A stretch of 64,000 nt of DNA, from sequence record MH051917. One strand, 5' to 3'. Source of the stretch: Enterobacteria phage vB_EcoM_IME341. The notes below the pieces were generated by a model. It had not been told where the DNA came from, made no database searches, and saw nothing but the letters and a program-made list of their open reading frames with translations. Positions 4,959-58,215 of the stretch are shown piece by piece (the first letter of the stretch is position 1; every line of letters begins with the position of its first letter). The translations under genes were made by a program, and so were the position numbers.

Positions 4959-5549
4959 ATGAACGGTTTATTTAACCAAACTAACACCACCAACTTTATC
5001 TTAGAGGTTAGTGACTCAGGAATGACCCAGTCATTCAAATTGAACGTACAAGATGTAACACTACCTGGTATCCATATTCCGATCTCAGACGTCCCAGGAT
5101 CGACCCAGGGTATACATCGTGCTAAGCTGCCAGGTTCTACAGTAGAATTCGACCCATTGGTCGTGAACTTTCTTGTAGACCGTGAATTGAAATCATGGCT
5201 TGATGTTTATAAGTGGATGTTGTCATTAAACAACTACGTAACCCACGAATCCGAAGCTTGGCATCCTAAAGGCTTACCTGAAGCAATTACGCTCCATATT
5301 CTTGATAATAACAAACAGAAAATCGTAATGAGCATTCATTACTACGGTGGTTGGCCATCCGACCTATCCGAAATCCAGTACTCATATAAAGAGGATTCCG
5401 ACCCTGCGATAATCGCTACAGCAACATTCAACTTCAAATCGTTTGCTGTAGAAATAGATGGTACAATAGTTACAGGTCGTCCACAAATTGATTCGTATGC
5501 CGAACAACGTGTGGCTCGTATGTCTATGCATCCATCTATGAGAAAATAA
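4959..5549 (+). CDS. 3: gp3 tail completion / sheath stabilizer protein
   Basis: 196 aa ORF between gene 2 and gene 1 as in T4. Confidence 0.7.
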   Translation: MNGLFNQTNTTNFILEVSDSGMTQSFKLNVQDVTLPGIHIPISDVPGSTQGIHRAKLPGSTVEFDPLVVNFLVDRELKSWLDVYKWMLSLNNYVTHESEAWHPKGLPEAITLHILDNNKQKIVMSIHYYGGWPSDLSEIQYSYKEDSDPAIIATATFNFKSFAVEIDGTIVTGRPQIDSYAEQRVARMSMHPSMRK

Positions 5550-6302
5550 TGAAACTAATATCAATTGTAGGAATCAAACGTAGCGGTAAGGATACCGTTG
5601 CTAACTATGTAATCGAAAATATGGATTCGGTAAAATTTCAGCTCGCGGGTCCTATTAAAAAGTATCTGGCTGAAGCCTATGAATACATCTCTGATGACCC
5701 TGTATTCGACCGTAGTTATATGCCTAAACTCGATTTTAACTGTTTTGAAGGTATCGGTTACGACCGCGAAGAAATCCTTCCTTTAAAACCATATGATGTG
5801 ATTGATATCTTTGAAAATGCTATTGTCAAACTGAATAATATCCTTCCTATTCCGGGAATTGATGTTCTTACCGCATATCATTATGGTCTTACCCCAGTCC
5901 AGTATCTGTCTGAAGAAACAAAAGACCAACTGTTTGAAGTAATAAATAAAAATAACAATTGGTCAGTACGTCGTCTCATGCAGACCCTTGGGACCGATAT
6001 TATTGTTAACCAATTTGATAAGATGTATTGGGTTAAGTTGTTCGCTTTAGACTATTTTGATAAAATATACTCTGATGCGAAATACTATGTCGTACCTGAT
6101 GTTCGTCAAACACACGAAATTGATTCGCTCAGAGCGATGGGTGCTACGATTATTCATGTAGTTCGCGCTGAAACCGGTCAAGTACAAGACTCGCACATCA
6201 CTGAAGCGGGTCTACCAATTTTACCTGGTGACGTTGTTGTTGAAAATAACGGCACTCTTTCTGAACTATACACTACTATTGATAAATTATTAGGAAATAA
6301 AA

Positions 6303-6310
<8 letters not shown>
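5549..6310 (+). CDS. 1: gp1 deoxynucleoside monophosphate kinase
   Basis: 253 aa, P-loop IVGIKRSGKDT near N-terminus; T4 gene 1 position upstream of 57A. Confidence 0.85.
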
Positions 6311-10848: not shown

Positions 10849-10852
10849 CGAA

Positions 10853-11043: not shown

Positions 11044-11078
11044 AGACCTATCAAAACAACAGAGTGAAGGAGAGTAAA

Positions 11079-11342: not shown

Positions 11343-11344
11343 TT

Positions 11345-11374: not shown

Positions 11375-11399
11375 GAGCCCATAATTTGAGGAGAACATA

Positions 11400-11798: not shown

Positions 11799-11801
11799 AA
11801 T

Positions 11802-11831
11802 GTTTACATCCCTCAGAGGACAGGGTATAAT
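11802..11831 (+). promoter_or_regulatory. early promoter (GTTTAC / TATAAT) with inverted repeat
   Basis: gtttacatccctcagaggacagggtataatgtcctc. Confidence 0.55.
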
Positions 11832-11873
11832 GTCCTCATGGATTATAAATCTTAACCAACTGAAGGAAATACT

Positions 11874-12467
11874 ATGAACACTTTAAAGAAAATCGTTGAA
11901 TTCATCCGTTCTAAACTGGGTACTGCAATGGCTCAGAACCTGTCAATCGAAGACCAGTATACTAAAGCTGCTTCTACCCTGATTGATAAAATCACTGAAC
12001 TCCAGACTGCTCATGTTAAGTCTGTGAATGAAGAAAAACGTATTCGGGCGTTGGCTAATGAAAAAGACCAGCTTGCTGCTTCTAAAGAACGTGAAATTCG
12101 TAAACTGATTGCCGAAGGCGCTGATGTCCAGGTACATGCTAAACTCGGCCTCCTTTATCGTCGTACGGCTACTCAGCTTCGTAAGAAAGCCGATGATTAT
12201 ATCGAAATGCGTAATGAAATTAAACTGAAGGTCAAGGAACTTGATGACTCTCGTCAGGAACTGGCTGTTAAGCTCGAGTACATCCGTGAAACTCGTAATA
12301 TGGCTGCCCTTGGTATTGCTACTGCCGATGATGTTGTTGAAATCGCTGCACTGACTAAGATTGATATTGAAGATACCCTGCTGCGTGTAGAAACGTTTAA
12401 AGGCCCACAGGTTGGAATGGATACGACTTCTGCTGATATCGACGACTACATTAATTCACTTAAGTAA
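11874..12467 (+). CDS. coiled-coil protein, tentatively PspA/IM30-like
   Basis: 197 aa, long predicted helices rich in E/K/R/A/L; family assignment not verified. Confidence 0.5.
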
Positions 12468-12478
12468 TGTTACCGGGA

Positions 12479-12500
12479 GACTTCGGTCTCCCTATTTGGA
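12479..12500 (+). terminator. stem-loop / weak terminator
   Basis: gggagac-ttcg-gtctccc followed by TATTT. Confidence 0.35.
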
Positions 12501-12515
12501 GGAGAGGAGAATATT

Positions 12516-13058
12516 ATGAGTTTATATGATGACCTGATATCAAATATTGATTGGTTTAAACATAGCGGTCTTTCCCATGAAACTAATGCAGTTCTTTATA
12601 GAATTCGCCAAGACCTAGGTTATTCCAATGATTTCTTAAGTCGAACAAGTAGCCATGGACACACTACCAAATTGCCCTTTATCTTCGCTTTAGCTGAAGA
12701 CCTTTCTTTTGCAGAAGCTTTAGAAATTATTGACGTAAATCTGGGTATTCAACGAGTGGAATTCGCTGGATTATGCTATTCAGTATACGCTTTAAATGAA
12801 CCAAGTGATTGTAAACAGCTTGTTGATGCTGACGATGATTACCATTTAGTATGCTATTTGATGTTAGAAAATGGTGACCACTTTGGTATGGTCGACCGCC
12901 GCCCGAGTTATTCGGATATTAAAAATTACGATAAAGATGAGCTTATTATTTTGGCTAATGAGTATACATCAGAGATTCGAAAACAACAACGGAAGCTTAA
13001 TCGTTTTATTGCTGAATGTCGCGAATACGCTAAAGAGGTTCAAAATGGAACGGCCTAG
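12516..13058 (+). CDS. hypothetical protein
   Basis: 180 aa, SD GGAGGAGAGG upstream. Confidence 0.5.
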   Translation: MSLYDDLISNIDWFKHSGLSHETNAVLYRIRQDLGYSNDFLSRTSSHGHTTKLPFIFALAEDLSFAEALEIIDVNLGIQRVEFAGLCYSVYALNEPSDCKQLVDADDDYHLVCYLMLENGDHFGMVDRRPSYSDIKNYDKDELIILANEYTSEIRKQQRKLNRFIAECREYAKEVQNGTA

Positions 13059-18764: not shown

Positions 18765-19259
18765 ATGGATATTTTTGATATGTTACGTCAAGACGAAGGT
18801 CTTGATTTAAATCTTTATAAAGACACCGAAGGTTATTGGACTATTGGGATTGGCCAGTTGATTACCAAAAACCCTTCAAAAGATGTTGCTCGTGCCGAAC
18901 TTGATAAGCTTATGGGCCGGGTTTGCAACGGTCGTATTACTATGGCTGAAGCTGAACAACTCTTTAACCGATCGGTTGAAAATGCTCGTAGAGCTATTCT
19001 GCGTAATCCTAAATTGAAACCTGTTTATGATGTACTGGACGAAGTTCGTCGTTGTGCTTTAATTAACATGGTCTTCCAGATGGGTGAAGCAGGTGTAGCT
19101 GGGTTCACTAACTCTTTACGTATGCTCCAACAGAAACGTTGGGACGATGCGGCAGTTAACCTGGCTCAATCCCGTTGGTATAAACAAACTCCTAATCGTG
19201 CTAAGCGCGTGATTTCAACATTTAAAACAGGTACTTGGAAAGCATATGAAAACTTATAA
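18765..19259 (+). CDS. e: endolysin (T4 lysozyme, gene e)
   Basis: 164 aa; [54 protein letters not shown]; highly similar to T4 lysozyme. Confidence 0.95.
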
Positions 19260-19548
19260 TGAATTTATCACTGAAGCCCGCGTAACCGCAGGTAAATTAG
19301 AAGCCGCTGTAAATAAAAAGGCCCATTCATTTCATGATTTGCCAGATAAAGACCGTAAGAAACTTGTAAGCCTTTATATTGACAAAGAGCGTATTCTCGC
19401 TCTCCCGGGCGCTAATGAAGGTAAACAGGCCAAGCCTTTGAATTCTGTCGAAAAGAAAATTGATAACTTTGCTTCTAAGTTTGGTATGTCTATGGATGAC
19501 CTTCAGCAAGCGGCTACCGAAGCAGCTAAAGCAATTAAAGGTAAATAA
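19246..19548 (+). CDS. internal protein (ipII/ipIII-like) with capsid-targeting sequence
   Basis: N-terminus [13 protein letters not shown]; 100 aa; between e and denV where T4 has ipIII/ipII. Confidence 0.7.
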
Positions 19549-19551
19549 CAG

Positions 19552-19580
19552 TTTACTTTTACAATAGCTGTGATATAGTG
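19552..19580 (+). promoter_or_regulatory. early promoter (GTTTAC / TATAGT)
   Basis: gtttacttttacaatagctgtgatatagt; downstream inverted repeat gtgttctc/gagaacac covers the denV SD. Confidence 0.45.
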
Positions 19581-19608
19581 TTCTCACACAAACATGGAGA
19601 ACACTAAA

Positions 19609-20025
19609 ATGACTCGTATTAACCTTACCTTAGTATCTGAATTGGCCGACCAACACTTAATGGCTGAATATCGCGAATTACCACGTGTTTTCGGTGCAGT
19701 TCGTAAGCATGTTGCTAATGGTAAACGTGTTCGTGATTTTAAAATTAGCTCTACTTTTATCCTTGGTACCGGCCATGTTACTTTCTTTTATGATAAGCTT
19801 GAATTTTTACGTAAACGTCAAATCGAGCTTATAGCCGAATGTTTAAAACGTGGTTTTAATATCAAGGACACTACGGTCCAAGACATTAGTGATATTCCTC
19901 AGGAATTCCGTGGTGACTATACTCCACACGAAGCTTCTATTGCTATATCTCAGGCCCGTTTGGACGAAAAAATTGCACAGCGTCCTACCTGGTACAAACA
20001 TTATGGCAAGGCTATTTACGCTTAA
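19609..20025 (+). CDS. denV: endonuclease V, pyrimidine dimer DNA glycosylase
   Basis: [35 protein letters not shown]... nearly identical to T4 endo V; ORF-track start 19594 is an upstream in-frame ATG. Confidence 0.95.
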
Positions 20026-41762: not shown

Positions 41763-41946
41763 ACCCTTTAAACGGCTTCTTATTGGAGCCGCCTTTAGAC
41801 TTCGCTCATACGGTAATATCTGTATTAAGCAGTCCGAAACCGAATATAAAATGATGGGCCAATATTCTGATGGTATTTTTCAGATTGAGCCCGTAGCCAA
41901 GGTTTGGGTAGATTCTCATCAACTTAAGAAGTGGTGGCAGAGATGA
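41746..41946 (+). CDS. hypothetical protein
   Basis: 66 aa. Confidence 0.4.
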   Translation: MALVNKPFKRLLIGAAFRLRSYGNICIKQSETEYKMMGQYSDGIFQIEPVAKVWVDSHQLKKWWQR

Positions 41947-42168
41947 TAACATGGACTGCAGGCTAATGAAAGACGAATACGAAAAAGTTTAAGAGGCTGT
42001 ATGAATGACGAATTCGATGGATTTTGATAAGATTAAATCTGACAAAAATGAGATGTTGCTTCAATTTGAAGCCGCTCGTATTAAAGCAGAAAATGAAGGT
42101 ACTATTACCTATAAGCCTATCAAGTTCAGGTCTAATCACGAACCTCTGTACGGTGTATTAGTTGGTAA

Positions 42169-42189
42169 AGGAGCTTAGGCTCCTTTTTT
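42169..42189 (+). terminator. intrinsic terminator
   Basis: aggagc-ttag-gctcct + TTTTT. Confidence 0.6.
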
Positions 42190-42213
42190 GCTTTATGCAT
42201 ATCGGAGTACAAT
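42188..42213 (+). promoter_or_regulatory. possible T4-type middle promoter (MotA box TGCTTTA + TACAAT)
   Basis: tTGCTTtA, 12 bp, TACAAT upstream of small ORF and gene 47. Confidence 0.35.
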
Positions 42214-42374
42214 AGTCTAAACTGAGGAGAACATATGGAATTATTTTTAGGATATGTCGTGCTATTAATGGCATTCTATACATTCACACGAGCTTGTTGG
42301 ATAGGATTCTTTTCCACTCCTGACGGGTTCATTTCAATAATTTTATTTTGCACTGCGATAACGGCGCTTGGCTT

Positions 42375-43397
42375 ATGAAAATACTAAACACAGGTGACTG
42401 GCACCTTGGAGTTAAGAACGATGATGTGTGGGTACAGAATATCCAACGTCAAGGTATCCAAGACGCTATTGATTATTCTAAAGCAAATGGTATTACTGTC
42501 TGGATTCAGTACGGTGATATCTTTGACGTTCGTAAAGCAATTACCCACAAGTGCATGGAATTCGCTCGCGAAATTTCCGATTTGCTTAAAGCCAACGGCA
42601 TTACCATGTATACTATCGTTGGCAACCATGATATGCACTACAAAAATACCTTGACTCCGAACGCAGCTTCAGAAGTTCTGGGTAAATATGACCATATCAA
42701 GGTTATTGAGAAACCTACTACGGTTAACTTTGATGGCACCGAAATTGATTTGATTCCATGGATGTGTGAAGAAAACACGACCGATATCATGGACCATATC
42801 AAAAATACCACAGCAGATTTCTGTATAGGTCACTGGGAATTAAATGGTTTCTATTTCTATAAAGGAATGAAATCTCATGGTTTAGAACCTGATTTCCTTA
42901 AGAAGTATAAGCAAGTTTGGTCAGGCCATTTCCACACTATTTCTGATGCAGCAAACGTTAAGTATATTGGTACGCCATGGACCCTGACTGCTGGAGATGA
43001 GAACGACCCTCGCGGCTTTTGGATTTTCGATACAGAAACCCATAAGATGGATTTCATCATTAATGAAACCTGTTGGCACCGTAAGATTCATTATCCAAAT
43101 GCGACTATCGATTACAAAGATTTTACAAATATCGCAGTTCGTGTTATAGTCGATAAAATTGATGACGGTCTTACTAAGTTCGAATCAGAGCTTGAAAAGG
43201 TTGTCCATTCTTTACGTATCGTGTCTAAGGTAGATAACAGTGTTGATATCGATGATTCTGAAGAGGAAGATGAAGTTAAGTCCCTCTTGGATATGATGTA
43301 TGATTATATCGATGCCCTTCCTGATGGCCACACTGAAGACGATGTTAAAGCCCTTAAGACTATGGCTGCACAACTTTATAATGAGGTTACACGATGA
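42375..43397 (+). CDS. 47: gp47 recombination endonuclease subunit (Mre11-like)
   Basis: MKILNTGDWHLGVK..., phosphoesterase motifs GDIFD, GNHD; ORF-track start 42348 is upstream non-ATG. Confidence 0.9.
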   Translation: MKILNTGDWHLGVKNDDVWVQNIQRQGIQDAIDYSKANGITVWIQYGDIFDVRKAITHKCMEFAREISDLLKANGITMYTIVGNHDMHYKNTLTPNAASEVLGKYDHIKVIEKPTTVNFDGTEIDLIPWMCEENTTDIMDHIKNTTADFCIGHWELNGFYFYKGMKSHGLEPDFLKKYKQVWSGHFHTISDAANVKYIGTPWTLTAGDENDPRGFWIFDTETHKMDFIINETCWHRKIHYPNATIDYKDFTNIAVRVIVDKIDDGLTKFESELEKVVHSLRIVSKVDNSVDIDDSEEEDEVKSLLDMMYDYIDALPDGHTEDDVKALKTMAAQLYNEVTR

Positions 43398-48299: not shown

Positions 48300-48305
48300 A
48301 TTAAA

Positions 48306-48668
48306 ATGATTGAAATTACTCTGAAACAACCTGAAGACTTCTTGAAAGTGAAAGAGACCCTAACTCGTATGGGTATTGCTAATAATAAAGAAAAGAAACT
48401 ATATCAATCCTGCCACATTCTGCAAAAGCAAGGGCTATATTATATCGTCCACTTTAAAGAGATGTTGCGTATGGATGGCCGCCAAGTTGATATTGATGGT
48501 GAAGACTACCAACGTCGGGATTCTATTGCCCAGCTTCTTAAGGAGTGGGGACTGATTGATATTGTAGATGAATCTGAACTGTTTGAAATCACCAATAACT
48601 TCCGTGTCATTTCCTTTAAGCAGAAAAATGACTGGGAACTATTGTCCAAATACACAATCGGTAATTAA
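48306..48668 (+). CDS. regA: RegA translational repressor
   Basis: MIEITLKQPEDFLKVKETLTRMGIANNKEK...; highly similar to T4 RegA. Confidence 0.9.
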   Translation: MIEITLKQPEDFLKVKETLTRMGIANNKEKKLYQSCHILQKQGLYYIVHFKEMLRMDGRQVDIDGEDYQRRDSIAQLLKEWGLIDIVDESELFEITNNFRVISFKQKNDWELLSKYTIGN

Positions 48669-48669
48669 T

Positions 48670-48885
48670 ATGATTCATGAAATTGAAACGTGTGAACGAC
48701 TTAAAGAGGTGTACGGGCTTTCCACAACTCAAACTGTTTTTGACCTTTCCGAAGAGCTCCAAATAGAATTTCAAAAGGACCTCCAAAAGTTACTACATCC
48801 TGGCCAGCAAGTCTTCCAGGCTATGATTAAAACTAAAGACGAAGATGGTAATTCAACTATTAAACGTCAGACAATAGAAATTTAA
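48670..48885 (+). CDS. hypothetical protein
   Basis: 71 aa between regA and gene 43. Confidence 0.45.
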   Translation: MIHEIETCERLKEVYGLSTTQTVFDLSEELQIEFQKDLQKLLHPGQQVFQAMIKTKDEDGNSTIKRQTIEI

Positions 48886-48888
48886 GCA

Positions 48889-48908
48889 AAGGGACTTCGG
48901 TCCCTTTT
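48889..48908 (+). terminator. stem-loop / terminator followed by TTGGAGTATAATG
   Basis: aagggac-ttcg-gtccctt + TTTT. Confidence 0.45.
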
Positions 48909-48966
48909 GGAGTATAATGATTCATCAACAAACAAAAGACAATCACTCGTCTATAAAGGAAATGAA

Positions 48967-51678
48967 ATGCAAGAATTCTATTTGACAGTCGAACAAATCG
49001 GTGATAATATTCTCGAACGTTACATCGATAAAAATGGTAACGAACGTAGTCGTGAAGTTCCTTACAAGCCCACAATGTTTATGCATGCCAATCCAGAGCA
49101 AGCCGTAAAATACATTGATATCTATGGTAAGGGTTGTGTTAAGAAAGAATTCGACTCTATGCGCGATGCATCCCAATGGATGAAACGTATGGACGATATG
49201 GGTCTCGAAGCCCTGGGTATGGACGACTATAAATTAGCCTATTTGTCTGATACCTATCGTAAAGAAATCAGGTATGATTCTTCTAAGATTCGTATTGCTA
49301 ACTTCGACATCGAGGTAACATCTCCTGATGGATTCCCTGAACCAGCTCAGGCTAAACATCCTATCGATGCCATTACCCACTACGACTCGATTGACGATAA
49401 ATTCTATGTATTCGACCTTTTAGTTTCGCCTTATGGTACCGTCGAAGAGTGGTCGATTAAAATCGCTGAGAAACTCCAAGAAGAAGGTGGTGACGAAGTT
49501 CCACAAGAAATCATTGACAAAATCGTTTATCTTCCGTTTAATTCCGAAGAAGAAATGATGCTTGAGTATCTGAATTTCTGGCAACAGAAAACTCCTGTGA
49601 TTTTGACTGGATGGAACGTTGAGTCGTTTGACGTACCATACGTTTATAACCGTCTGAAAAATCTGTTTGGTGAGAACACTGCTAAGCGATTAAGCCCGCA
49701 TCGTAAGACTCGTGTTAAAGTTATCGAGAACATGTACGGTGCTCGTGAAATTATTACATTGTTCGGTATCTCTGTTCTAGATTATATCGACCTGTATAAA
49801 AAATTCAGCTTTACCAACCAGCCTTCTTATTCTCTGGATTATGTTTCTGAATATGAATTGAAAGTAGGTAAGTTGAAATATGATGGTCCAATCTCCAAGT
49901 TACGTGAGACTAACCACCAACGATATATTTCCTATAACATTATCGACGTATATCGTGTAGTGCAGATTGATATGAAACGCCAGTTCATTCTTTTGAGTTT
50001 GGACATGGGTTATTATGCTAAGATGCAGATTCAGTCGGTGTTCAGTCCAATTAAGACTTGGGATGCTATTATCTTTAATAGCCTTAAAGAACAAGGCAAG
50101 GTCATTCCGCAGGGTCGTTCACACGTGGTCCAACCTTATCCTGGTGCTTTCGTTAAGGAACCTATTCCTAACGCTTACAAATATGTAATGAGTTTCGACC
50201 TTACATCTCTGTACCCGAGTATCATTCGACAAGTGAATATAAGCCCAGAGACCATCGCAGGGACATTCGCTAACGCACCTATACATGAATATATTGCCGG
50301 AACAGCTCCGCGTCCTAGCGACACCTACAGTTGCTCTCCTAACGGCATGATGTACTATAAAGACCGTGAAGGTGTGATTCCGACAGAAATCACTAAGGTG
50401 TTCTTACAACGTAAAGAACATAAAGGTTATATGCTTGCAGCCCAACGTAATGGTGAGTTAATTAAAGAAGCATTAGAAAATCCTAATCTCTCGGTTGATA
50501 GTCCACTGGATATCGATTATCGTTTTGACTTCTCTGACGAAATCAAAGCCCAGATTAAAGCACTGTCAGCGCCTTCTTTAAGAGAAATGTTGAAGAAAGC
50601 CGAGCTCACTGAAGTTGCAGGTAATACGGCTCAGATTAACCGTAAGTTGCTTATCAACTCCCTTTATGGTGCACTTGGTAACGTATGGTTCCGTTACTAC
50701 GACCTCAGGAACGCAACTGCAATCACACTGTTTGGTCAAATGGCCCTCCAATGGATTGAACGTAAGGTTAACGAATATCTGAATAGCGTGTGTAAGACTG
50801 AAAACCAGAAGTTCGTGCTCTATGGTGATACTGACTCCATTTATGTTAAGGCAGATGCAATCATCAATAAAGTAGGTGAAGATAAATTCCGTGACACTAA
50901 CCACTGGGTCGACTTCTTAGATAAATTTGCACGTGAACGTATGGAACCGGCTATTGATGCAGGCTTCCGTGAGATGTGCGAGTACATGAACAACAAACAA
51001 CACTTGATGTTCATGGACCGAGAAGCTATCGCAGGTCCTCCACTTGGTTCTAAAGGTCTTGGTGGATTCTGGACAGGCAAGAAACGTTATGCACTGAACG
51101 TTTGGGACATGGAAGGTACTCGTTATGCCGAACCACACTTGAAAATCATGGGCCTTGAAACTCAGAAATCAAGTACGCCTAAAGCGGTTCAGAAAGCTCT
51201 GAAAGAATGTATCCGTCGTATGCTTCAGGAAGGCGAGGCCTCTTTGCAAGAATATTTCAAACAGTTTAATAAGGAATTTAACGAACTAAACTATGTAAGC
51301 ATTGCAGCAGTATCCAGTGCTAACAACATTGAGAAATATAACGAAGGCGGATTCCCTGGTTCTAAATGCCCGTACCATATCAAAGGTTGCTTAGCTTACA
51401 TGCGTGCTTCTGCAGGTGATTTGACTATGCCTCGTATCGTTGATGGTGAAAAGGTATATGTACTGCCACTTAAAGAAGGCAACCCGTTTGGTGAAGCCTG
51501 TATGGCATGGCCGTCAGGTATTGAACTTCCAGTTCAGATTCGTGACCAAGTCCTCCGTTGGATGGACTACAACGTACTGTTCCAAAAGACCTTTATCAAG
51601 CCTCTGACTGGTTTTACTGAGTCCGCTAAAATCGACTACGAGAAAAAAGCAACATTATTTGATATGTTCGACTTTTAA
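48967..51678 (+). CDS. 43: gp43 DNA polymerase (family B)
   Basis: 903 aa; MQEFYLTVEQIGDNILERYID..., exo and pol motifs (FDIE, YGDTDS); ORF-track start 48907 is upstream. Confidence 0.95.
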   Translation: MQEFYLTVEQIGDNILERYIDKNGNERSREVPYKPTMFMHANPEQAVKYIDIYGKGCVKKEFDSMRDASQWMKRMDDMGLEALGMDDYKLAYLSDTYRKEIRYDSSKIRIANFDIEVTSPDGFPEPAQAKHPIDAITHYDSIDDKFYVFDLLVSPYGTVEEWSIKIAEKLQEEGGDEVPQEIIDKIVYLPFNSEEEMMLEYLNFWQQKTPVILTGWNVESFDVPYVYNRLKNLFGENTAKRLSPHRKTRVKVIENMYGAREIITLFGISVLDYIDLYKKFSFTNQPSYSLDYVSEYELKVGKLKYDGPISKLRETNHQRYISYNIIDVYRVVQIDMKRQFILLSLDMGYYAKMQIQSVFSPIKTWDAIIFNSLKEQGKVIPQGRSHVVQPYPGAFVKEPIPNAYKYVMSFDLTSLYPSIIRQVNISPETIAGTFANAPIHEYIAGTAPRPSDTYSCSPNGMMYYKDREGVIPTEITKVFLQRKEHKGYMLAAQRNGELIKEALENPNLSVDSPLDIDYRFDFSDEIKAQIKALSAPSLREMLKKAELTEVAGNTAQINRKLLINSLYGALGNVWFRYYDLRNATAITLFGQMALQWIERKVNEYLNSVCKTENQKFVLYGDTDSIYVKADAIINKVGEDKFRDTNHWVDFLDKFARERMEPAIDAGFREMCEYMNNKQHLMFMDREAIAGPPLGSKGLGGFWTGKKRYALNVWDMEGTRYAEPHLKIMGLETQKSSTPKAVQKALKECIRRMLQEGEASLQEYFKQFNKEFNELNYVSIAAVSSANNIEKYNEGGFPGSKCPYHIKGCLAYMRASAGDLTMPRIVDGEKVYVLPLKEGNPFGEACMAWPSGIELPVQIRDQVLRWMDYNVLFQKTFIKPLTGFTESAKIDYEKKATLFDMFDF

Positions 51679-51680
51679 GT

Positions 51681-51710
51681 GTTTACATACCACAAGGAAC
51701 GTGGTAGTAT
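51681..51710 (+). promoter_or_regulatory. early promoter (GTTTAC / TAGTAT) with inverted repeat
   Basis: gtttacataccacaaggaacgtggtagtat. Confidence 0.5.
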
Positions 51711-51741
51711 CCTTCCTATCAACTACTTAGAGGAAATTACA

Positions 51742-51978
51742 ATGGAAGCTTTAATCGTTAGTGCTGGTGTTTTAGGATTTGGTTCTCTGGTTATTATGTT
51801 CATCGGTTACTTTTTACCATGGATTTTAGCTCTTCTGCGAGGCACTCGTAGTAATGTAGGAATTTTCTTCCTTAATCTCCTGTTGGGTTGGACGATGATT
51901 GGTTGGGTAGTGGCTTTAATCTGGGCTATCGTCGCTGAACGTAAATCAAACGCACAAATCATTATCGTTAAGCAATGA
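51742..51978 (+). CDS. superinfection immunity (Imm)-like membrane protein
   Basis: 78 aa, two TM helices; directly after gene 43 where T4 has imm. Confidence 0.55.
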   Translation: MEALIVSAGVLGFGSLVIMFIGYFLPWILALLRGTRSNVGIFFLNLLLGWTMIGWVVALIWAIVAERKSNAQIIIVKQ

Positions 51979-52112
51979 AAATAATTATTTTATTTCTTAT
52001 AATGGCTGCCTTTACCGTTTATTGGGCAGTGGCAATTCCGCCAATGATTCCGACACTAATCATCGGATGGATTATTCTTATAGCACAAATTAAGTATAAC
52101 TGTTTTAATTGA
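51975..52112 (+). CDS. possible 45-aa membrane peptide
   Basis: MKIIILFLIMAAFTVYWAVAIPPMIP... Confidence 0.35.
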   Translation: MKIIILFLIMAAFTVYWAVAIPPMIPTLIIGWIILIAQIKYNCFN

Positions 52113-52119
52113 GGATATT

Positions 52120-52620
52120 ATGAAAAAGTTAATTATCGCAATGAGTATACTCCTATCAGGTTGCGCGGCCCAATATGGTGATGCAGTTTCAGCCGATGAA
52201 GTTGGTAAAGCTCGTATCGCAGCTGAACAGAAACAATTCGATGGCGAAATGAAATTCCGTGCAGGTTCTGGACTTGTGTATACCCGAGCTAATAATCAAT
52301 GCGGTAATAACTGTGCAAAATATGCTCAAAGGGAAATCGAATTCCAACGTGAACAAGAGTCTAAGCGTGAAGCGGTACTAGCCAAACACCAGGCAGAAAT
52401 GAAGCGCCAAGATGATTTGTACAAAAAGCAGAAACTGTATGCGATGTGCGTAAACCATATCAATCTACAGATTTCTATCCATGAGGCTCGTTATTACGAA
52501 ATGCTCGAAACCGAGAGCTTCGATAAAGCCCGTGATTATAAGAAACAAATCAATAAGCTCAAGACCAAAGTACCGGCGGCAATAGAACAGTGTATTGAAA
52601 TCGGTAAAGATAAGATTTAA
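52120..52620 (+). CDS. predicted lipoprotein
   Basis: Signal peptide with lipobox LLSGC; coiled-coil rest. Confidence 0.55.
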   Translation: MKKLIIAMSILLSGCAAQYGDAVSADEVGKARIAAEQKQFDGEMKFRAGSGLVYTRANNQCGNNCAKYAQREIEFQREQESKREAVLAKHQAEMKRQDDLYKKQKLYAMCVNHINLQISIHEARYYEMLETESFDKARDYKKQINKLKTKVPAAIEQCIEIGKDKI

Positions 52621-52680
52621 GCAATACCAATTTATTAAAAATAGTGTATAATGTACCTACATTCACTTGAGGAACAGATA

Positions 52681-54354
52681 ATGAAAAAGGTTGTTATTTT
52701 AGGCGCAGGTCTTGGCTCACGGTTGTATCCAATTACTAACGAAATCCCGAAGGTATTGGTTAACTACAAACAACATACTGTATTAAAACATTTGTATGAT
52801 TTGTATAGTAACCAATCGGATGAAATTATTCTGGTTATTCACAGCAAATTTAACGACCTCGTTAAAGGCTATATTAAATCCATTAACATGATTAATAGTG
52901 ATAAGCCTAAATTCACTATTCGTAACGTAGATGTGGCTAATGGTTCAGCTCATGCTATTGATTGCATTGCCGAAGATATCATCGGGCACAATGTCTTGTT
53001 TAACTGGTGTGATATTATTCCTGAAGGTTATAAAGTTGAGTGGGATAACGACTATTGCTATACCTACGGGACTGACTGTCGTTTTACATTTGAAGAACCG
53101 TACTTGCGTGAAATTGGTACCGGTGGTGGCGTAGTTGGCTTGTATCAGGTGGCTAATTGGACAGGTTTTAACGGTCTGTATTATGGCGAAGACCTGGCCG
53201 ACAACCTGGATTCAATGGTCCATTTGACCGAACGTAAGCTAGACTTTGTAGTTGATGTCGGTGACAAACTGAAACTGGCTAAGGCCCATGAAGAATCTGA
53301 AATTAACCGTGAATTTAATAAATTAGAGTTCACTGAGAATCTGGCTATTAAAGTACCTACCAACGAATTAGGTAAAGAAATCCAATCTAAAGAAATCAAT
53401 TGGTATAATTCTATTGATTCTGAATTTGTTCCGAGCATTGTAGACTTTGCTCCAGGTGAATTCATTAAAATGGAACGTATCTTTGGTCGTACTATGGCAG
53501 ATGCCTATCGGTTTATGTCTAAAGAAACTAAAGTCCTCATGGTTTATAAGGTCATTAGTGCATTACGTTCATTCGGTGGAACTATCGATAATCCATCCGA
53601 TGAGCAATGGTATTCCGATGTTAAGAAAGAAGTATTGGACAAGGTCCTTATTCGTAATGCTTCTATTGCCGGATTGATTGAAGGCTTTGCTCCACAGGGC
53701 ATTACCCATGTCAATGACTTTAAGGTAGGCGACCCTGAAAAACTTCTTCGCCATGCACTAGAAATTCTGTCTGAACATAAAGAACCGTACCAACTTATTC
53801 ATGGCGACCCGCACTACAGTAATATTATGTTGTCGGACGAAGGTGATATTAAAATCATCGACCCACGTGGTTATTTTGGTAATAGTTCTAAAGGCCCTGC
53901 GATTTATGACGAAGCTAAAGTGCTTTATTCTATCGATGGTTATGACAAATTTAACTCTGACCCTCTATGGGGCGGCTTAACTCGTAACGGAACTCGTGTA
54001 TTCGTTGATATTGAAAAGGTTATGCCTTTAGACGATATTCCGATGTGTACATTTAAGCACAAGCTCTGGATTGCTGTTATCTGGATGGCATTGGCAGGTT
54101 ACTTTAAAAATAACCCTCTGAAAGCTCTGGGTGCTTATTACAACGGGTTGTACCAACTGAGTGTGCTGCTTAAGCGGCATCCTCGTAAGCGTAAGCTTAT
54201 CACAGGTGAATTTGTCGATGAAGTTCGTGACCCTATCACGGCTCAAATTATCACTCGTTGTCCTGATAAGTGGGTTTTGCTTGACCAAGAAACTGGTGTA
54301 AAATATAAACCTACAGGTTCTACTGAACTCCACAAACAATGGAAGAAAATTTAA
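52681..54354 (+). CDS. bifunctional sugar-1-phosphate nucleotidyltransferase / APH-fold kinase
   Basis: N-terminal NTP-transferase motif ILGAGLGSRLYP; C-terminal kinase motifs LIHGDPHYSNIML and IDPRGYFG (Brenner / DFG-like); 557 aa. Confidence 0.65.
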   Translation: MKKVVILGAGLGSRLYPITNEIPKVLVNYKQHTVLKHLYDLYSNQSDEIILVIHSKFNDLVKGYIKSINMINSDKPKFTIRNVDVANGSAHAIDCIAEDIIGHNVLFNWCDIIPEGYKVEWDNDYCYTYGTDCRFTFEEPYLREIGTGGGVVGLYQVANWTGFNGLYYGEDLADNLDSMVHLTERKLDFVVDVGDKLKLAKAHEESEINREFNKLEFTENLAIKVPTNELGKEIQSKEINWYNSIDSEFVPSIVDFAPGEFIKMERIFGRTMADAYRFMSKETKVLMVYKVISALRSFGGTIDNPSDEQWYSDVKKEVLDKVLIRNASIAGLIEGFAPQGITHVNDFKVGDPEKLLRHALEILSEHKEPYQLIHGDPHYSNIMLSDEGDIKIIDPRGYFGNSSKGPAIYDEAKVLYSIDGYDKFNSDPLWGGLTRNGTRVFVDIEKVMPLDDIPMCTFKHKLWIAVIWMALAGYFKNNPLKALGAYYNGLYQLSVLLKRHPRKRKLITGEFVDEVRDPITAQIITRCPDKWVLLDQETGVKYKPTGSTELHKQWKKI

Positions 54355-54713
54355 TGCATCTGTGTTTTGATATCGATAACACAATCACGGTTTGGAACCA
54401 CGACCGTGATTATGAAAACTTTAAACCGGACACCGAAATGGTGTCCATGATTAATAAGCTTTATGACGAAGGTTATGAGATTACACTGTTCACTGCTCGT
54501 GGCATGACTTCATGTGGACCCGGTCGAATCTTGGTTGAAGTAGTTCCTGCATTGGTTAAGAACCTTGAAAAGATTGGATTGAAATATCATAATCTGCTTA
54601 CACACAAGCCGAGTTATACTTTTATCATCGATGACCGAGCAATCCGTCCTGACCACTTTAAAGAAATGGTTCGTGAAGGAACTCTTGAAACCTATAAGGC
54701 ATATCATCCGTGA
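54354..54713 (+). CDS. HAD-superfamily phosphatase
   Basis: Motif I FDIDNTIT (DxDxT), motif II TLFTARG, motif III K...IIDD; 119 aa. Confidence 0.65.
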   Translation: MHLCFDIDNTITVWNHDRDYENFKPDTEMVSMINKLYDEGYEITLFTARGMTSCGPGRILVEVVPALVKNLEKIGLKYHNLLTHKPSYTFIIDDRAIRPDHFKEMVREGTLETYKAYHP

Positions 54714-55246
54714 AACCAAAAATCATTGTTATCGACGGCCCGGATAATTCCGGGAAGTCTACTTTAATTGAATCACTTTTATCTGATAAGAAATATCGTC
54801 TTATTGATTTTCCTAAAAAGATTAATGGCAAATGCATTTCATTAGGGACTGATAATGACAAGGCTTTAGTCGAGACGTTGTATAAGTTTTTAGACCCTAA
54901 TTTCGTTTACATCCTCGACCGTGGTTATCCAAGTAATATAGTTTACTCAGGATTCCTTCGTGGTGAAATGGACCCTTATGTGGAACTAGCAGATTGGATT
55001 GATTTCAAAAAAGAATTCAATATCATTGAGATTATTTTAACCCGTAATCCGTTGGATAAAGACTTTGAAGATGACCTCATTAAACTGACTAAAGATGAGT
55101 TCAACTTAACTATTCAGAAATATGAAGACTGTTTTAAAAATGTTTTTAAAGTTTTAAACCATGACGGACATAATAACTTGCTTAACGTCGATATGGTAGA
55201 ATTAAAACGTCTGAATGAATATATTGAAAATAAGGTGAATAAATGA
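54710..55246 (+). CDS. P-loop nucleoside/nucleotide kinase-like protein
   Basis: Walker A IDGPDNSGKST in a 178-aa protein (dNK/TMK-like size). Confidence 0.55.
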   Translation: MKPKIIVIDGPDNSGKSTLIESLLSDKKYRLIDFPKKINGKCISLGTDNDKALVETLYKFLDPNFVYILDRGYPSNIVYSGFLRGEMDPYVELADWIDFKKEFNIIEIILTRNPLDKDFEDDLIKLTKDEFNLTIQKYEDCFKNVFKVLNHDGHNNLLNVDMVELKRLNEYIENKVNK

Positions 55247-55941
55247 AACACATTACCGCTGTTAGTTTTGAAAACGCGTTTAAGCAAATGAACGAAGAAA
55301 TCCTGGAAGCTCCACAGTTTGCAGTTGATTCTCGTATCGGCCGTTGTTATGAAATTGGTTCTGCTTCGGTAGAAGTACTGGATGCAAGCACTTACAAATT
55401 CACCGATCCCCGCATTAATCGTATCAACTATGATTATGCCGAATCTTTCTGGAAATTTATGATTTCTGGTGGTACTGATGCCGCCGAAGCATTTAAGGAA
55501 TATCCTAATGTTGCTAAGTTCATTGATAAGCCGAAAAGTGACGTATTGCCTGCAAACTTCAACACTTTCTATGGACCTCGAATTGTGGCCCAACTCCCAG
55601 CCCTACTTAAAGAGCTTAAAGAAAAGCCTAACTCGCGAAGAGTTGTGTTCCAGATTCTCCAAGAACAAGACCAAGCCCTCCTTGATTCTGACGAATCCTT
55701 AGAATATCCGTGTACCGATTCGGTAACATATTATATTCGTGATGGACGTCTGTATGCACACACTCATATGCGTTCACAGAACTGTGCTATCGTTATGCAG
55801 CTGGATTTCTATCTGCAGGGTAAACTGATGGCCTTTATTGCTGAACAGTGTGGTGTTGGTCTGGGTACGTATTCCCATACTATGGTTAGTGCACATGTAT
55901 TTGAACGTGATTTTGACTACGTTCGAGGATTCCTGAAATGA
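55243..55941 (+). CDS. thymidylate-synthase-superfamily pyrimidine hydroxymethylase (divergent gp42-like)
   Basis: Recalled TS/dCH motifs: NSRR, catalytic PC (EYPCTDSVTYYIRDG), HMRSQN, Asp at specificity position, HVFERDF. Confidence 0.6.
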   Translation: MKHITAVSFENAFKQMNEEILEAPQFAVDSRIGRCYEIGSASVEVLDASTYKFTDPRINRINYDYAESFWKFMISGGTDAAEAFKEYPNVAKFIDKPKSDVLPANFNTFYGPRIVAQLPALLKELKEKPNSRRVVFQILQEQDQALLDSDESLEYPCTDSVTYYIRDGRLYAHTHMRSQNCAIVMQLDFYLQGKLMAFIAEQCGVGLGTYSHTMVSAHVFERDFDYVRGFLK

Positions 55942-56831
55942 GTCTGTTTATCGTTCCTATTTTCAGTATGCGTAGTTACGAAACAGGTGAATATGCCGTC
56001 CTTAAGGACGGTAATTTTCAACTCCATTTAAACCGTGCTTGCCCAGGTGATTATCTGGCTTATCCTAGAAATTCGAGCGATATCAAAGAATGTATTGAAT
56101 TGTTTCCTGAACTGAATTTTGTACCGCTTTGGTATAAAGAAAATGCTTATGAAACCCGTAAACATTTTTGGTCTGAAAATGAGTTCGTTGTTGATTCGCT
56201 AATCGAATACTATGACTGCTCAGGATTAGTAACCGATATCACAGGTTATGATGGTGCTCAGACAGTACAATTCAACTTTAACATTACAATGGACCCTGAA
56301 GTTCCTCGTTATTATATTGATGAGTTCATTGATATCGATGTGTCTTCGGTTGAACGTTCGATTTATACTACAGTCCTTAACCAATGCCAGAAAGACGTCC
56401 TGGTGTCACGAGGTGCGTCCTCTGATAAGATTTTTGTAGACCAAAAGGTAATTAATCCTGCAATAATTGAGCGTTACTCTGAAGGTCTAGCGCCTATTAA
56501 AATTGATGGTATTTTCCATCCATTCCGTATCTCTGATAAATGCTATCAATTCGAAAGAGTTGTAGACCAAGCTGCGGCTGAAGGTTCTCGTCTTTACATC
56601 ACCGATCCGAATGATTCATTTAAGCGTGAAGACTATCGTCCTGATGTAGAGATTATTAAATTCAAACCGAGTAAGGTTGAATATTATCAGATTCTGAAAT
56701 CAAGACCTCATATCATTTATCATGAGAATCCTGGTTTAGTATTCCATCCTGGTCTAGCTGAATTCATTTATTTCGGTGCCCATATCCATTCTGAGTACGA
56801 AATGCCGAGTTATGAGGACGTAGTATGCTAG
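55938..56831 (+). CDS. hypothetical protein in the position of T4 beta-glucosyltransferase
   Basis: 297 aa; no motif recognised by eye. Confidence 0.5.
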   Translation: MSLFIVPIFSMRSYETGEYAVLKDGNFQLHLNRACPGDYLAYPRNSSDIKECIELFPELNFVPLWYKENAYETRKHFWSENEFVVDSLIEYYDCSGLVTDITGYDGAQTVQFNFNITMDPEVPRYYIDEFIDIDVSSVERSIYTTVLNQCQKDVLVSRGASSDKIFVDQKVINPAIIERYSEGLAPIKIDGIFHPFRISDKCYQFERVVDQAAAEGSRLYITDPNDSFKREDYRPDVEIIKFKPSKVEYYQILKSRPHIIYHENPGLVFHPGLAEFIYFGAHIHSEYEMPSYEDVVC

Positions 56832-56956
56832 GTCCTTTATTGCTTTTTATAGGTTTGTTATTATTCTCTTTCGGAGCCTTGTTATTATTATGCTGGCTCG
56901 AGAAACGAGAAGTCCGGAAGATAGTCGATAAGGCTATCAACCGAGGAATAAAATAA
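56825..56956 (+). CDS. possible 43-aa membrane peptide
   Basis: MLGPLLLFIGLLLFSFGALLLLCW... Confidence 0.3.
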   Translation: MLGPLLLFIGLLLFSFGALLLLCWLEKREVRKIVDKAINRGIK

Positions 56957-57033
56957 CGCTGTAAATGTGAAGTGATATAATTACCCTATCTTAAAACGTG
57001 AGTAAAATATAATGGTGCCTATGGAAAAATATA

Positions 57034-58215
57034 ATGTCCGATTTAAAATCCCGTTTGATTAAAGCTTCTACTTCTAAAATGACTGCCGACCTGACCAAAT
57101 CTAAATTGTTTAATGGTCGTGACGAAGTTCCTACTCGTATCCCTATGCTTAATATTGCATTAGGCGGTGCATTGAATGCAGGCTTACAATCAGGTTTGAC
57201 AATCTTTGCTGCTCCATCTAAACACTTTAAAACGTTGTTTGGACTTACCATGGTTGCGGCATATATGAAGAAATATCCAGACGCAATTTGTTTGTTCTAT
57301 GACTCTGAGTTTGGTGCTTCAGAATCTTATTTCCGTTCGATGGGTGTTGACCTGGAACGTGTGGTTCATACACCAATCCAGTCAGTCGAACAGCTTAAAG
57401 TTGATATGACCAACCAGTTAGAAGAAATTACTCGCGGCGAAAAGGTTATTATCTTTATCGACTCCATTGGTAACACTGCTTCTAAGAAAGAAACCGAAGA
57501 TGCTTTGAACGAGAAAGTTGTAGGTGATATGACTCGTGCTAAGTCACTGAAATCTCTGTTCCGTATCGTAACACCTTATCTGACCATCAAAGATATCCCT
57601 TGTGTAGCAATTAACCACACGGCTATGGAAATTGGTGGAATGTATCCTAAAGAGATTATGGGTGGTGGTACTGGTATTCTGTACTCTGCTTCTACCGTGT
57701 TCTTTATCTCTAAACGTCAGGTTAAAGATGGTACTGAGCTCACTGGTTATGACTTCACACTGAAGGCTGAGAAATCTCGTACGGTTAAAGAGAAGTCAAC
57801 GTTCCCTATCACCGTTAACTTTGAAGGCGGTATCGACCCGTTCAGTGGATTGCTTGAAATGGCTACTGATATCGGCTTTGTCGTGAAACCTAAAGCTGGT
57901 TGGTATAATCGTGCATTCCTTGACGAAACCACGGGTGAAATGGTTCAAGAAGAAAAAGCATGGCGTGCCAAAGCTACCGATTGTGTTGAGTTCTGGGGAC
58001 CTCTGTTTAAACATGCCCCGTTCCGTGAAGCAATCGAGAATAAGTATAAGCTTGGTGCAATTAATTCTATTAAAGAAGTTGACGATGCAGTGAACGACCT
58101 TATTAACTCTCGTGTCTCTAAGAACGTTGCTGTTAAATTAGGCGGAAATACCCAAAGCGCCGCTGACATCGAAAGCGATTTAGAAAACATGAATTTTGTG
58201 AGCGACCATGACTGA
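57034..58215 (+). CDS. uvsX: UvsX recombinase (RecA-like)
   Basis: 393 aa; RecA fold motifs incl. Walker A-like region FAAPSKHFKT and loop regions; position before gp40/gp41. Confidence 0.9.
   Translation: MSDLKSRLIKASTSKMTADLTKSKLFNGRDEVPTRIPMLNIALGGALNAGLQSGLTIFAAPSKHFKTLFGLTMVAAYMKKYPDAICLFYDSEFGASESYFRSMGVDLERVVHTPIQSVEQLKVDMTNQLEEITRGEKVIIFIDSIGNTASKKETEDALNEKVVGDMTRAKSLKSLFRIVTPYLTIKDIPCVAINHTAMEIGGMYPKEIMGGGTGILYSASTVFFISKRQVKDGTELTGYDFTLKAEKSRTVKEKSTFPITVNFEGGIDPFSGLLEMATDIGFVVKPKAGWYNRAFLDETTGEMVQEEKAWRAKATDCVEFWGPLFKHAPFREAIENKYKLGAINSIKEVDDAVNDLINSRVSKNVAVKLGGNTQSAADIESDLENMNFVSDHD

Follow-up and report, generated by a model that had tools for sequence, protein, structure and literature searches.

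A predicted dCMP 5-hydroxylase and arabinosylation-type cassette in the gene 42 slot of a Dhakavirus genome

The gene 42 slot and its neighbours

The window, i.e., the whole 64-kb stretch of DNA that was analysed, comes from the genome of a Dhakavirus, a T4-like coliphage of the JS98/Bp7/QL01/KIT01 type, and is 96.7% identical to KIT01. In the slot that gene 42 takes up in T4, with imm on one side and uvsX on the other, it carries a thymidylate synthase (TS) homolog, which is accompanied by genes with counterparts in the phages RB69, DLP3 and HY126. The features considered here are the following:

5549..6310, plus strand: gp1 dNMP kinase, 51% identical to T4 gp1 and 52% to RB69 gp159 over 250 aa
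52681..54354, plus strand: bifunctional enzyme of 557 aa, sugar-1-phosphate nucleotidylyltransferase (N-terminal) and APH-type kinase (C-terminal), ortholog of RB69 gp52:53, DLP3 gp82 and HY126 AfhE
54354..54713, plus strand: HAD-family phosphatase, ortholog of RB69 gp51, DLP3 gp81 and HY126 AfhF (arabinofuranose-1,5-bisphosphate 5-phosphatase)
54710..55246, plus strand: P-loop thymidylate-kinase (TMK)-like "nucleotide kinase" starting with a GTG that overlaps the stop codon of the preceding gene, ortholog of RB69 gp45 and DLP3 gp78
55243..55941, plus strand: predicted flavin-dependent dCMP 5-hydroxylase (5hodCMP synthase) of thymidylate-synthase fold, 232 aa, ortholog of RB69 gp48, DLP3 gp80 and the protein of PDB 9IQU/9IQC
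55938..56831, plus strand: predicted DNA glycosyltransferase of 297 aa in the T4 beta-gt slot, ortholog of RB69 gp46:47 ("arabinosyltransferase 1") and DLP3 gp79

The start ATG of the TS homolog overlaps the stop codon of the preceding gene (ATGA), and a ribosome-binding site, AAGGTG, lies 7 nt ahead of it. Overlaps of 4 nt are found between the HAD phosphatase and the kinase, the kinase and the TS homolog, and the TS homolog and the glycosyltransferase. A scan for promoters and terminators from 51.6 to 57.1 kb gave nothing above shuffled expectation. The 557-aa enzyme features the Pfam domains NTP_transferase (residues 13-110) and APH (residues 356-427) and matches phrog_4098 (E=5e-268). Its alignment with DLP3 gp82 along the whole length gives 44% identity (E=9e-143), and RB69 p052 and p053 reach 41-43%; enzymes of the AfhE type combine an arabinose-5-phosphate 1-kinase with a UDP-arabinose pyrophosphorylase (PMC13326640). 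The HAD protein shares 63% identity with RB69 p051 and matches the structures 9IQW (E=4.4e-52) and 1XPJ (E=2.5e-12), with the model TIGR01689 (capsule biosynthesis phosphatase, E=1.2e-14) scoring 54 bits, which is below its cut-off of 162 bits. For the TMK-like kinase, identities of 37% to RB69 p045 and 39% to DLP3 gp78 (E=5e-34) were obtained, together with a match to phrog_761, thymidylate kinase (E=4e-40). The 297-aa transferase is 65-70% identical to the collinear RB69 fragments p046 and p047 and 50% identical to DLP3 gp79; it matches phrog_3891 of unknown function (E=6e-159), and neither a Pfam nor a PDB sequence match was found for it. Homologs of T4 beta-gt and alpha-gt were detected nowhere within the 64-kb window, no window ORF matches the T4 alpha-gt interval, and the homologs of gp47 and a-gt.2 lie adjacent to each other.

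According to the sequence-only reading, the distance between this gene and T4 gp42 is much greater than that between the surrounding genes and their equivalents in T4, which is borne out by pairwise alignment. The TS homolog shares 25.2% identity with T4 gp42 over 159 aligned aa (E=1.8e-9), versus 58-77% for the flanking replication genes (gp45 58%, gp43 61%, uvsX 66%, gp41 66%, gp44 67%, regA 77%), and an identity comparable to that of gp43 and uvsX was thus not seen. Further neighbours reach 52% (gp62), 44% (gp40) and 43% (imm). For 74 window ORFs a T4 homolog exists, and identity within this set has a median of 59% (IQR 46-71), the TS homolog being the third-lowest. When a second, T4-like gene 42 was sought across the window, the TS homolog itself was the sole match. 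A decaying or fast-evolving gp42 was rejected because deposited proteins from several independent isolates are 100% identical to the product and because not one catalytic residue varies among 120 homologs with identities as low as 50%.

Relatives and signature residues of the TS homolog

The closest characterized relatives of the TS homolog are not T4 gp42 but RB69 gp48 (78.8% identity over 231 aa) and DLP3 gp80 (71%), which were experimentally verified as flavin-dependent 5-hydroxy-dCMP (5hodCMP) synthases and do not produce 5hmdCMP (Lee et al., NAR 2026, PMC13326640). The homolog of Shewanella phage Thanatos is likewise 71% identical, and 81% is reached by that of Serratia phage 92A1, a phage reported to contain arabinosylated 5hodC (PMC13326640). 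The solved structures 9IQU/9IQC/9IR2 match the protein over its full length (E=1.5e-125), one being available at about 79% identity. The homolog of phage HY126 was reportedly described as a 5-hydroxy-dCMP synthase by He et al. (Nat Chem Biol 2026). With 232-238 aa, the RB69, DLP3 and HY126 proteins resemble the window protein in length, share its active-site signature (C146, E143, N169, D177 and V173 in ThyA numbering), occupy the same locus between gp43 and uvsX and have the same cassette neighbours, i.e., the bifunctional nucleotidyltransferase-kinase, the HAD phosphatase, the TMK-like kinase and the glycosyltransferase.

Compared with E. coli ThyA, the catalytic C146 is kept in the TS homolog and the exchanges L143E, D169N, G173V and N177D are present, with Glu143 and Asp177 being the same in RB69 gp48 and DLP3 gp80. 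The phosphate-binding residues Arg126, Arg127, Arg166 and Ser167 are conserved according to both pairwise and 125-sequence alignments. The folate-site residues Trp80 and Trp83 are lost (Ala at position 80), an indirect sign that may point to flavin use. RB69 gp48 and its HY126 counterpart are reported to use FMN as cofactor and O2 as oxygen source (PMC13326640). The D169N exchange was proposed to be diagnostic of hydroxylases (PMC13326640), and in a search of 5.8 billion proteins Asn169, together with the whole signature pattern, was found in all 120 best homologs. The motif around this position reads MRSQN in the window protein, MRSND in T4 gp42 and QRSCD in ThyA. Cytosine specificity, as previously suggested for the gene product, is upheld by an Asp aligned with Asn177 of ThyA: this exchange moves the preference from dUMP to dCMP according to mutagenesis work cited in PMC13326640, so that the TS homolog would act on dCMP. 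Of the motifs that had been listed as common to the protein and T4 gp42, all occur in the ORF (KPNSRR, YPC, MRSQN, HVFERDF). The final Asn of the fourth, MRSxN, is not shared by T4 gp42, and it is this residue that separates hydroxylases from hydroxymethylases. Taken from its sequence, the protein is thus very probably a 5hodCMP synthase and not a hydroxymethylase, the product being predicted from 71-79% identity to verified enzymes.

More distant systems place these features in context. T4 gp42 (e.g., PDB 1B5E) belongs to the same superfamily as the window protein and agrees with it in fold, genomic slot, catalytic Cys, the two phosphate-binding Arg residues, Asp177 and the acidic nature of residue 143, but it retains Asp169, Gly173 and Trp80 where the window protein has Asn, Val and Ala, and it adds CH2OH via methylene-THF, whereas the close relatives of the window protein add OH by means of flavin and O2. 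The next-best solved structure after 9IQU/9IQC is that of the CMP 5-hydroxymethylase MilA (5B6D/5JNH; E=2.5e-14, nearly full-length alignment), which is cytosine-specific with Asp at both positions 177 and 143 (PMC13326640), the window protein having Glu at the latter. MilA is roughly 100 residues longer, takes the ribonucleotide CMP as its substrate, depends on folate and works in antibiotic biosynthesis. On a distant branch, gp216 of Rhizobium phage RL38JI (Pootjesviridae) shares D169N, and its 5hodC production was verified experimentally (PMC13326640). Related homologs of Rhizobium and Agrobacterium phages show 33-35% identity to the window protein, and RL38JI carries galactose and glucose on the 5-OH rather than arabinose.

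Predicted pathway and competing readings

It is highly likely that the Dhakavirus TS homolog is a dCMP 5-hydroxylase, whose cassette would give rise to O-arabinosyl-5-hydroxycytosine and restriction-resistant DNA. The assignment draws on homology, signature residues, synteny and the absence of T4 glucosyltransferases, and cofactor, product, sugar identity and step order would follow those of relatives. By homology with RB69 gp48, DLP3 gp80 and the HY126 enzyme, dCMP would be bound with the help of the Asp that replaces Asn177 of ThyA, C6 would presumably be attacked by the conserved Cys, and FMN and O2, instead of methylene-tetrahydrofolate, would place a hydroxyl directly on C5. The 5hodCMP formed would be converted to the triphosphate by the gp1 dNMP kinase, which in RB69 turns 5hodCMP into 5hodCDP (PMC13326640), and by host NDP kinase, and gp43 would insert 5-hydroxy-dC triphosphate in place of dC. 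The four adjacent, translationally coupled genes would serve the synthesis of the sugar donor and the attachment of the sugar: arabinose-5-phosphate may be phosphorylated at C1 by the 557-aa enzyme, its 5-phosphate taken off by the HAD phosphatase, UDP-arabinofuranose formed by the nucleotidyltransferase domain of the 557-aa enzyme, and arabinose transferred to the 5-OH by the 297-aa glycosyltransferase. The predicted end product is DNA with O-arabinosyl-5-hydroxycytosine, resistant to restriction. The first arabinosyltransferase activity is itself a proposal even for RB69 and DLP3, and Dhakaviruses are already named among the genera with a syntenic cluster in the same study (PMC13326640), in which nine further homologs were assayed. 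Chemical analyses of Dhakavirus enzymes or virion DNA were not found in the literature consulted.

The cassette differs from those of RB69 and DLP3 in several respects, so that hydroxylation can be predicted with more confidence than the identity and number of the sugars. The TMK-like kinase gene lies upstream of the TS homolog, whereas it lies downstream of the transferase in the RB69/DLP3 systems, and no homologs of RB69 p055 (arabinose-5-phosphate isomerase), the U32-peptidase-like p050 or p049, or gp3 (second arabinosyltransferase) occur in the window. A tblastn search with p055 against 50,697 phage records matched 276 of them, with no Dhakavirus among 50 sampled across the ranking; the Escherichia/Shigella matches (151) are explained by a Mosigvirus band of at least 95% identity (152). 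Homologs of gp3 were found only in Mosigvirus (at least 95%) and Acinetobacter phages (<60%). Among about 50 Dhakavirus records, neither the phage isomerase nor the gp3-type transferase turned up. Second and third arabinosyltransferases (RB69 gp3, DLP3 gp76/77) are needed for poly-arabinosylation (PMC13326640) and mark this variant, not the cytosine arabinosylation cluster as such; Thanatos, with a single syntenic transferase, has mono-arabinosylated DNA. The chances are about even that 5hodCMP is made and then decorated otherwise than in RB69, with a single arabinose, with another sugar, or with bare 5hoC remaining if the transferase is inactive alone. Apart from the missing genes and the example of Thanatos, this is favored by the sugar-activating enzyme, just 41-44% identical to its RB69/DLP3 counterparts, and by the hexoses on 5hoC in RL38JI (PMC13326640), and it is countered by the presence of full-length orthologs for all three UDP-arabinofuranose activities and for the first transferase.

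E. coli produces arabinose-5-phosphate itself via KdsD and GutQ. For this reason the phage isomerase is probably not essential to the cluster, and its loss does not require a different sugar. The lack of isomerase and second transferase thus leads to the prediction of a host-dependent, mono-arabinosylated 5-hydroxycytosine, and the modification would in consequence depend on the LPS-precursor metabolism of the host. Arabinose is the most likely sugar attached via the cassette, and it seems improbable that the 557-aa enzyme activates a non-arabinose sugar, which would provide the virion DNA with an undescribed 5hoC glycoside. A stripped-down 5-hydroxycytosine pathway with a diverged sugar-activating enzyme may be common to Dhakaviruses and to related Klebsiella phages, in which the TS homolog is 86-87% identical to the one described here.

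The historical annotation, also given in the sequence-only reading, takes the protein for a dCMP hydroxymethylase (gp42) that has diverged strongly and forms 5-hydroxymethyl-dCMP from methylene-tetrahydrofolate. It is consistent with the gene 42 slot, the fold, the catalytic Cys, the Asp at position 177 and the acidic residue at position 143; gene 42 was credited to JS98-type phages (Petrov et al., 2010), and the homolog is named "dCMP hydroxymethylase" in several GenBank records. Nevertheless, 25% identity to T4 gp42 is opposed by 79% and 71% to the verified 5hodCMP makers, Asn replaces Asp at the reported hydroxylase-diagnostic position 169, Trp80 and Trp83 of the folate site are missing and the window is devoid of hmC glucosyltransferases, so that this label does not hold and the hydroxymethylase is very improbable. 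RefSeq and many GenBank records name the protein a thymidylate synthase, but a canonical enzyme of this kind, with dUMP as substrate, has next to no likelihood: Pfam PF00303 (Thymidylat_synt) exceeds its gathering threshold, at residues 114-229 only (E=4.8e-14), and phrog_160 "thymidylate synthase" matches (E=6e-43), but the Asp at position 177 switches preference to dCMP, the NCBIfam equivalog models all stay far under their cut-offs (63 vs 174.55 and 43 vs 327), identity to E. coli ThyA amounts to only ~20% and the folate-binding Trp residues are gone.

Annotation and regional affinity

The biology of these hydroxylases and their cassette was itself published in 2026, with Dhakaviruses listed as carriers of the cluster (PMC13326640). 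The labels "thymidylate synthase", "dCMP hydroxymethylase", "phosphoheptose isomerase" (the misnomer of the HAD protein in public records) and "thymidylate kinase" given to the cassette are misleading in dozens of deposited Dhakavirus genomes, and hydroxylases and hydroxymethylases are still not separable by Pfam, PHROGs v4 or NCBIfam (June 2026). What tells the two apart is a single residue, Asn in place of ThyA Asp169, read along with the neighbouring genes. Dhakaviruses find use as coliphages in therapy and biocontrol. Sensitivity to restriction, type IV enzymes and CRISPR is set by their base modification, which also affects DNA sequencing and cloning.

The earlier suggestion that the gene travels with a neighbouring enzyme cassette holds, and the cassette lies in a region, from gp43 to uvsX, that differs in evolutionary affinity from the remainder of the window. 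The term "non-orthologous" fits only in part: the gene is homologous to T4 gene 42 and sits in the same slot, but the predicted chemistry is different. The direction of a horizontal replacement is not readable from the present data. The TS homolog shares 86-87% identity with its counterparts in Klebsiella phages, more than the 79% seen for Mosigvirus, and for gp43 Mosigvirus alone stands out (84%), with about 65-69% in the sampled Klebsiella phages and 61% in T4-likes. An adaptation of the polymerase to 5hoC as the cause of the RB69-like gp43 and uvsX was considered and found unsupported, as the affinities of gp43 and the TS homolog differ. Ordinary mosaic recombination probably explains the RB69-like gp43 and uvsX better than polymerase co-adaptation.

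Genome setting and divergence of the thymidylate synthase homolog

Megablast of region 51600-57100 returned 50 phage records with at least 80% query coverage, led by Escherichia phage KIT01 (96.7%) and followed by QL01, WG01, MX01, Bp7, JS10 and similar phages. As QL01 is classified in RefSeq as Straboviridae, Tevenvirinae, Dhakavirus, the window can be assigned, from its nucleotide relatives, to a Dhakavirus genome. The gene order on the + strand is gp45, gp44, gp62, regA, gp43, imm, a lipoprotein-like ORF, five cassette genes, uvsX, gp40 and gp41; the thymidylate synthase (TS) homolog lies between imm and uvsX, where T4 has gene 42.

Features of the locus
5549-6310: gp1 dNMP kinase
48967-51678, +: gp43
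52120-52620, +: 166-aa ORF between imm and the cassette, with a lipobox (…LLSGC) and lipoprotein signal peptide
52681-56831, +: five tightly packed cassette genes
55243-55941, +: TS homolog, 232 aa, with AAGGTG ribosome-binding site and a start codon (ATG) overlapping the stop of the preceding gene

Neither T4 nor RB69 has an equivalent of the 166-aa ORF at this locus, and its phrog_1754 match is to a family of unknown function. Since it adjoins the superinfection-immunity gene, the ORF may act in the envelope or in exclusion.

The sequence-only reading had flagged the TS homolog as far more diverged than its neighbours, and rightly so. In BLAST comparisons of the window with T4 and RB69 sequences taken from the phage collection, it shared 25% identity with T4 gp42 (159 residues, E=1.8e-9), whereas the replication genes reached 58-77% (flanking gp43 61% and uvsX 66%; gp41 66%, regA 77%, gp44 67%, gp45 58%). 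Across the 74 ORFs of the window for which T4 has a counterpart (median identity 59%, IQR 46-71), this is the third lowest value. The excess divergence is thus confirmed and a chance fluctuation excluded. Pfam recognized PF00303 (thymidylate synthase) in the C-terminal half only (E=4.8e-14). All motifs named in that reading as shared with T4 gp42 are present, but T4 gp42 has MRSND in place of MRSQN, which is the key difference.

Assignment as a predicted 5-hydroxy-dCMP synthase

The closest relatives of the protein lie outside the gp42 type. It is 78.8% identical to RB69 ORF048 over 231 residues, and tblastn revealed 100% identity to the QL01, KIT01 and SHP1 proteins, 86% to Klebsiella phage homologs, 71% to gp80 of Acinetobacter phage DLP3 and likewise to the homolog of Shewanella phage Thanatos, and 33-35% to Rhizobium and Agrobacterium phage homologs, with gp42-type proteins from other T4-like phages reaching only ~24%. 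In RB69 and DLP3 DNA, the base that carries ether-bonded arabinose is 5-hydroxycytosine and not hydroxymethylcytosine (Lee et al., Nucleic Acids Res 2026, PMC13326640). Expression of RB69 gp48 or DLP3 gp80 together with their own dNMP kinases brings 5-hydroxy-dC into E. coli DNA, 18O2 was identified as the oxygen source, and the purified enzymes contain flavin (PMC13326640). For the homolog from phage HY126, PMC13326640 cites a structure with bound flavin (He et al., Nat Chem Biol 2026). PDB entries 9IQU, 9IQC and 9IR2 match the TS homolog over its full length (E=1.5e-125) and have a sequence almost the same as that of RB69 gp48, so they are presumably these structures.

The published signature, in E. 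coli ThyA numbering, comprises a retained Cys146, N177D (dCMP instead of dUMP), L143E and D169N, the last being diagnostic for hydroxylation (PMC13326640). In an alignment of E. coli ThyA (from MG1655), T4 gp42, RB69 gp48, DLP3 gp80 and the window protein, the latter features C146, E143, N169 and D177, matching both verified hydroxylases, whereas T4 gp42 has D169. The Asp earlier noticed at the Asn177 position was thereby recovered. A search of 5.8 billion proteins yielded 357 homologs; in the best 120 of these (identity down to 50%), C146, E143, N169, D177 and V173 were invariant (120/120), position 80 was Ala, Thr, Ser or Leu and position 83 Ile, Leu, Val or Met, neither ever being Trp. These 120 include a protein of Serratia phage 92A1, 81% identical to the window protein; this phage carries arabinosylated 5hodC (PMC13326640). 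None of the NCBIfam thymidylate-synthase equivalog models came near its cut-off (63 bits for a threshold of 174.55; 43 for 327). Because of its close relatives, the full residue signature and these low scores, the window protein, which carries all sequence-level defining features of the family, is filed as a predicted 5hodCMP synthase. The earlier label of hydroxymethylase, contradicted by N169 and the 78.8% and 71% identity to the RB69 and DLP3 enzymes, should become "5-hydroxy-dCMP synthase (predicted)".

Cassette genes and proposed pathway

All five cassette genes have orthologs in the RB69 and DLP3 clusters (p-numbers denote RB69 ORFs).

Other cassette proteins
557 aa: NTP_transferase and APH kinase domains (Pfam); 41-43% to RB69 p052:53, 44% full-length to DLP3 gp82
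119 aa: HAD protein; 63% to RB69 p051; PDB 9IQW, E=4e-52
178 aa: P-loop kinase (TMK-like); 37-39% to RB69 p045 and DLP3 gp78
297 aa: 65-70% to RB69 p046:47, 50% to DLP3 gp79

The HY126 counterpart of the 557-aa protein is AfhE, described in PMC13326640 as an arabinose-5-P 1-kinase and UDP-arabinose pyrophosphorylase; the HAD protein is, by its similarity, an AfhF-type phosphatase. RB69 p046:47 and DLP3 gp79 are the proposed first arabinosyltransferases, whose activity was reconstituted in neither phage, and the RB69 gp1-type dNMP kinase phosphorylates 5hodCMP (PMC13326640). No homolog of the T4 beta-gt and no ORF matching the T4 alpha-gt interval was found in the 64-kb window; the a-gt.2 and gp47 homologs adjoin at 41946-42375, where, as in RB69, the alpha-glucosyltransferase and mobB genes that intervene in T4 are lacking.

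Since 4-nt start/stop overlaps occur at three of the four junctions (HAD/kinase, kinase/TS, TS/transferase), the genes appear to form a single translationally coupled unit. The TMK-like kinase gene has a G+C content of 0.32-0.35, against 0.42 for the TS homolog that follows (54750-55999); such a step inside a single operon would fit an origin of its parts from different sources.

The most likely pathway, grounded in homology, signature and synteny and borrowing its chemistry from the relatives, would begin with hydroxylation of dCMP at C5 by the TS-fold flavoenzyme. Subsequently, gp1 and the host NDP kinase would produce 5hodCTP for incorporation by gp43. The 557-aa and HAD enzymes would convert arabinose-5-P via arabinofuranose-1,5-bisphosphate and arabinofuranose-1-P to UDP-Araf, from which the 297-aa transferase would place arabinose on the 5-OH.

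JS98-type phages were previously described with a "gene 42 dCMP hydroxymethylase" and without glucosyltransferases, the modification being left open (Petrov et al. 2010). The 2026 papers resolved it for RB69 and DLP3 and named Dhakaviruses among the genera with a syntenic cluster (PMC13326640). Since the cluster is covered by these papers and sequences identical to the window protein are already deposited, the divergence, though real and biologically meaningful, is already explained. Public annotation of the cassette, in the QL01 RefSeq record (4080-8230) and in GenBank, varies between names and is in part erroneous: the HAD phosphatase appears as "phosphoheptose isomerase", the hydroxylase "thymidylate synthase", "dCMP hydroxymethylase" or "deoxycytidylate 5-hydroxymethyltransferase", and the transferase "RNA polymerase binding protein" or "hypothetical".

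Reduced gene set and mosaic history

Unlike the RB69 cluster (6048-12599 of its record), the Dhakavirus cassette is devoid of p055 (arabinose-5-P isomerase), p050 (U32-peptidase-like) and p049, none of which has a homolog in the window; moreover, the TMK-like kinase lies upstream of the TS homolog, whereas it follows the transferase in RB69. A tblastn search of all phage records with p055 gave 276 matches, 151 of them from Escherichia and Shigella, in agreement with the Mosigvirus band of 152 at 95% or more; a sample spread across the ranking of these records contained no Dhakavirus homolog. Homologs of RB69 gp3, the second arabinosyltransferase, occurred only in Mosigvirus and Acinetobacter phages and were not found in Dhakavirus records. 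The E. coli host provides arabinose-5-P through KdsD and GutQ. Given the missing p055-type isomerase and gp3-type transferase, Dhakaviruses are predicted to take arabinose-5-P from these host enzymes and to stop at one arabinose. This resembles Thanatos, with a single syntenic transferase and one arabinose, although a non-homologous second transferase may lie elsewhere in the Dhakavirus genome.

Most genes of the window are as far from T4 as from RB69 (T4/RB69 identity: gp41 66/68, gp44 67/63, gp45 58/58, gp62 52/51, gp55 79/81, gp49 87/83%), whereas gp43 (61/84) and uvsX (66/90) resemble RB69 from end to end. The 80-90% identity band of gp43 comprised 169 records in the phage collection, every sampled one being Mosigvirus-type; the control gene gp41 displayed no Mosigvirus preference. 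This contrast indicates, at the level of sequence identity, a block of ~10 kb (roughly 48.3-58.2 kb, 48300-58215) that includes the cassette and has a history of its own, in common with Mosigvirus. The block is itself mosaic, as the TS homolog shares 86-87% identity with its counterparts in Klebsiella phages but 79% with Mosigvirus. The suggested horizontal replacement of gene 42 with its cassette agrees in spirit with this block, which would fit transfer in either direction. Elsewhere, at 19246-20025 (+), denV and the adjacent ipII-like ORF are 97% and 94% identical to T4; these values greatly exceed the 59% window median and suggest that T-even phages recently took part in an exchange in this segment.
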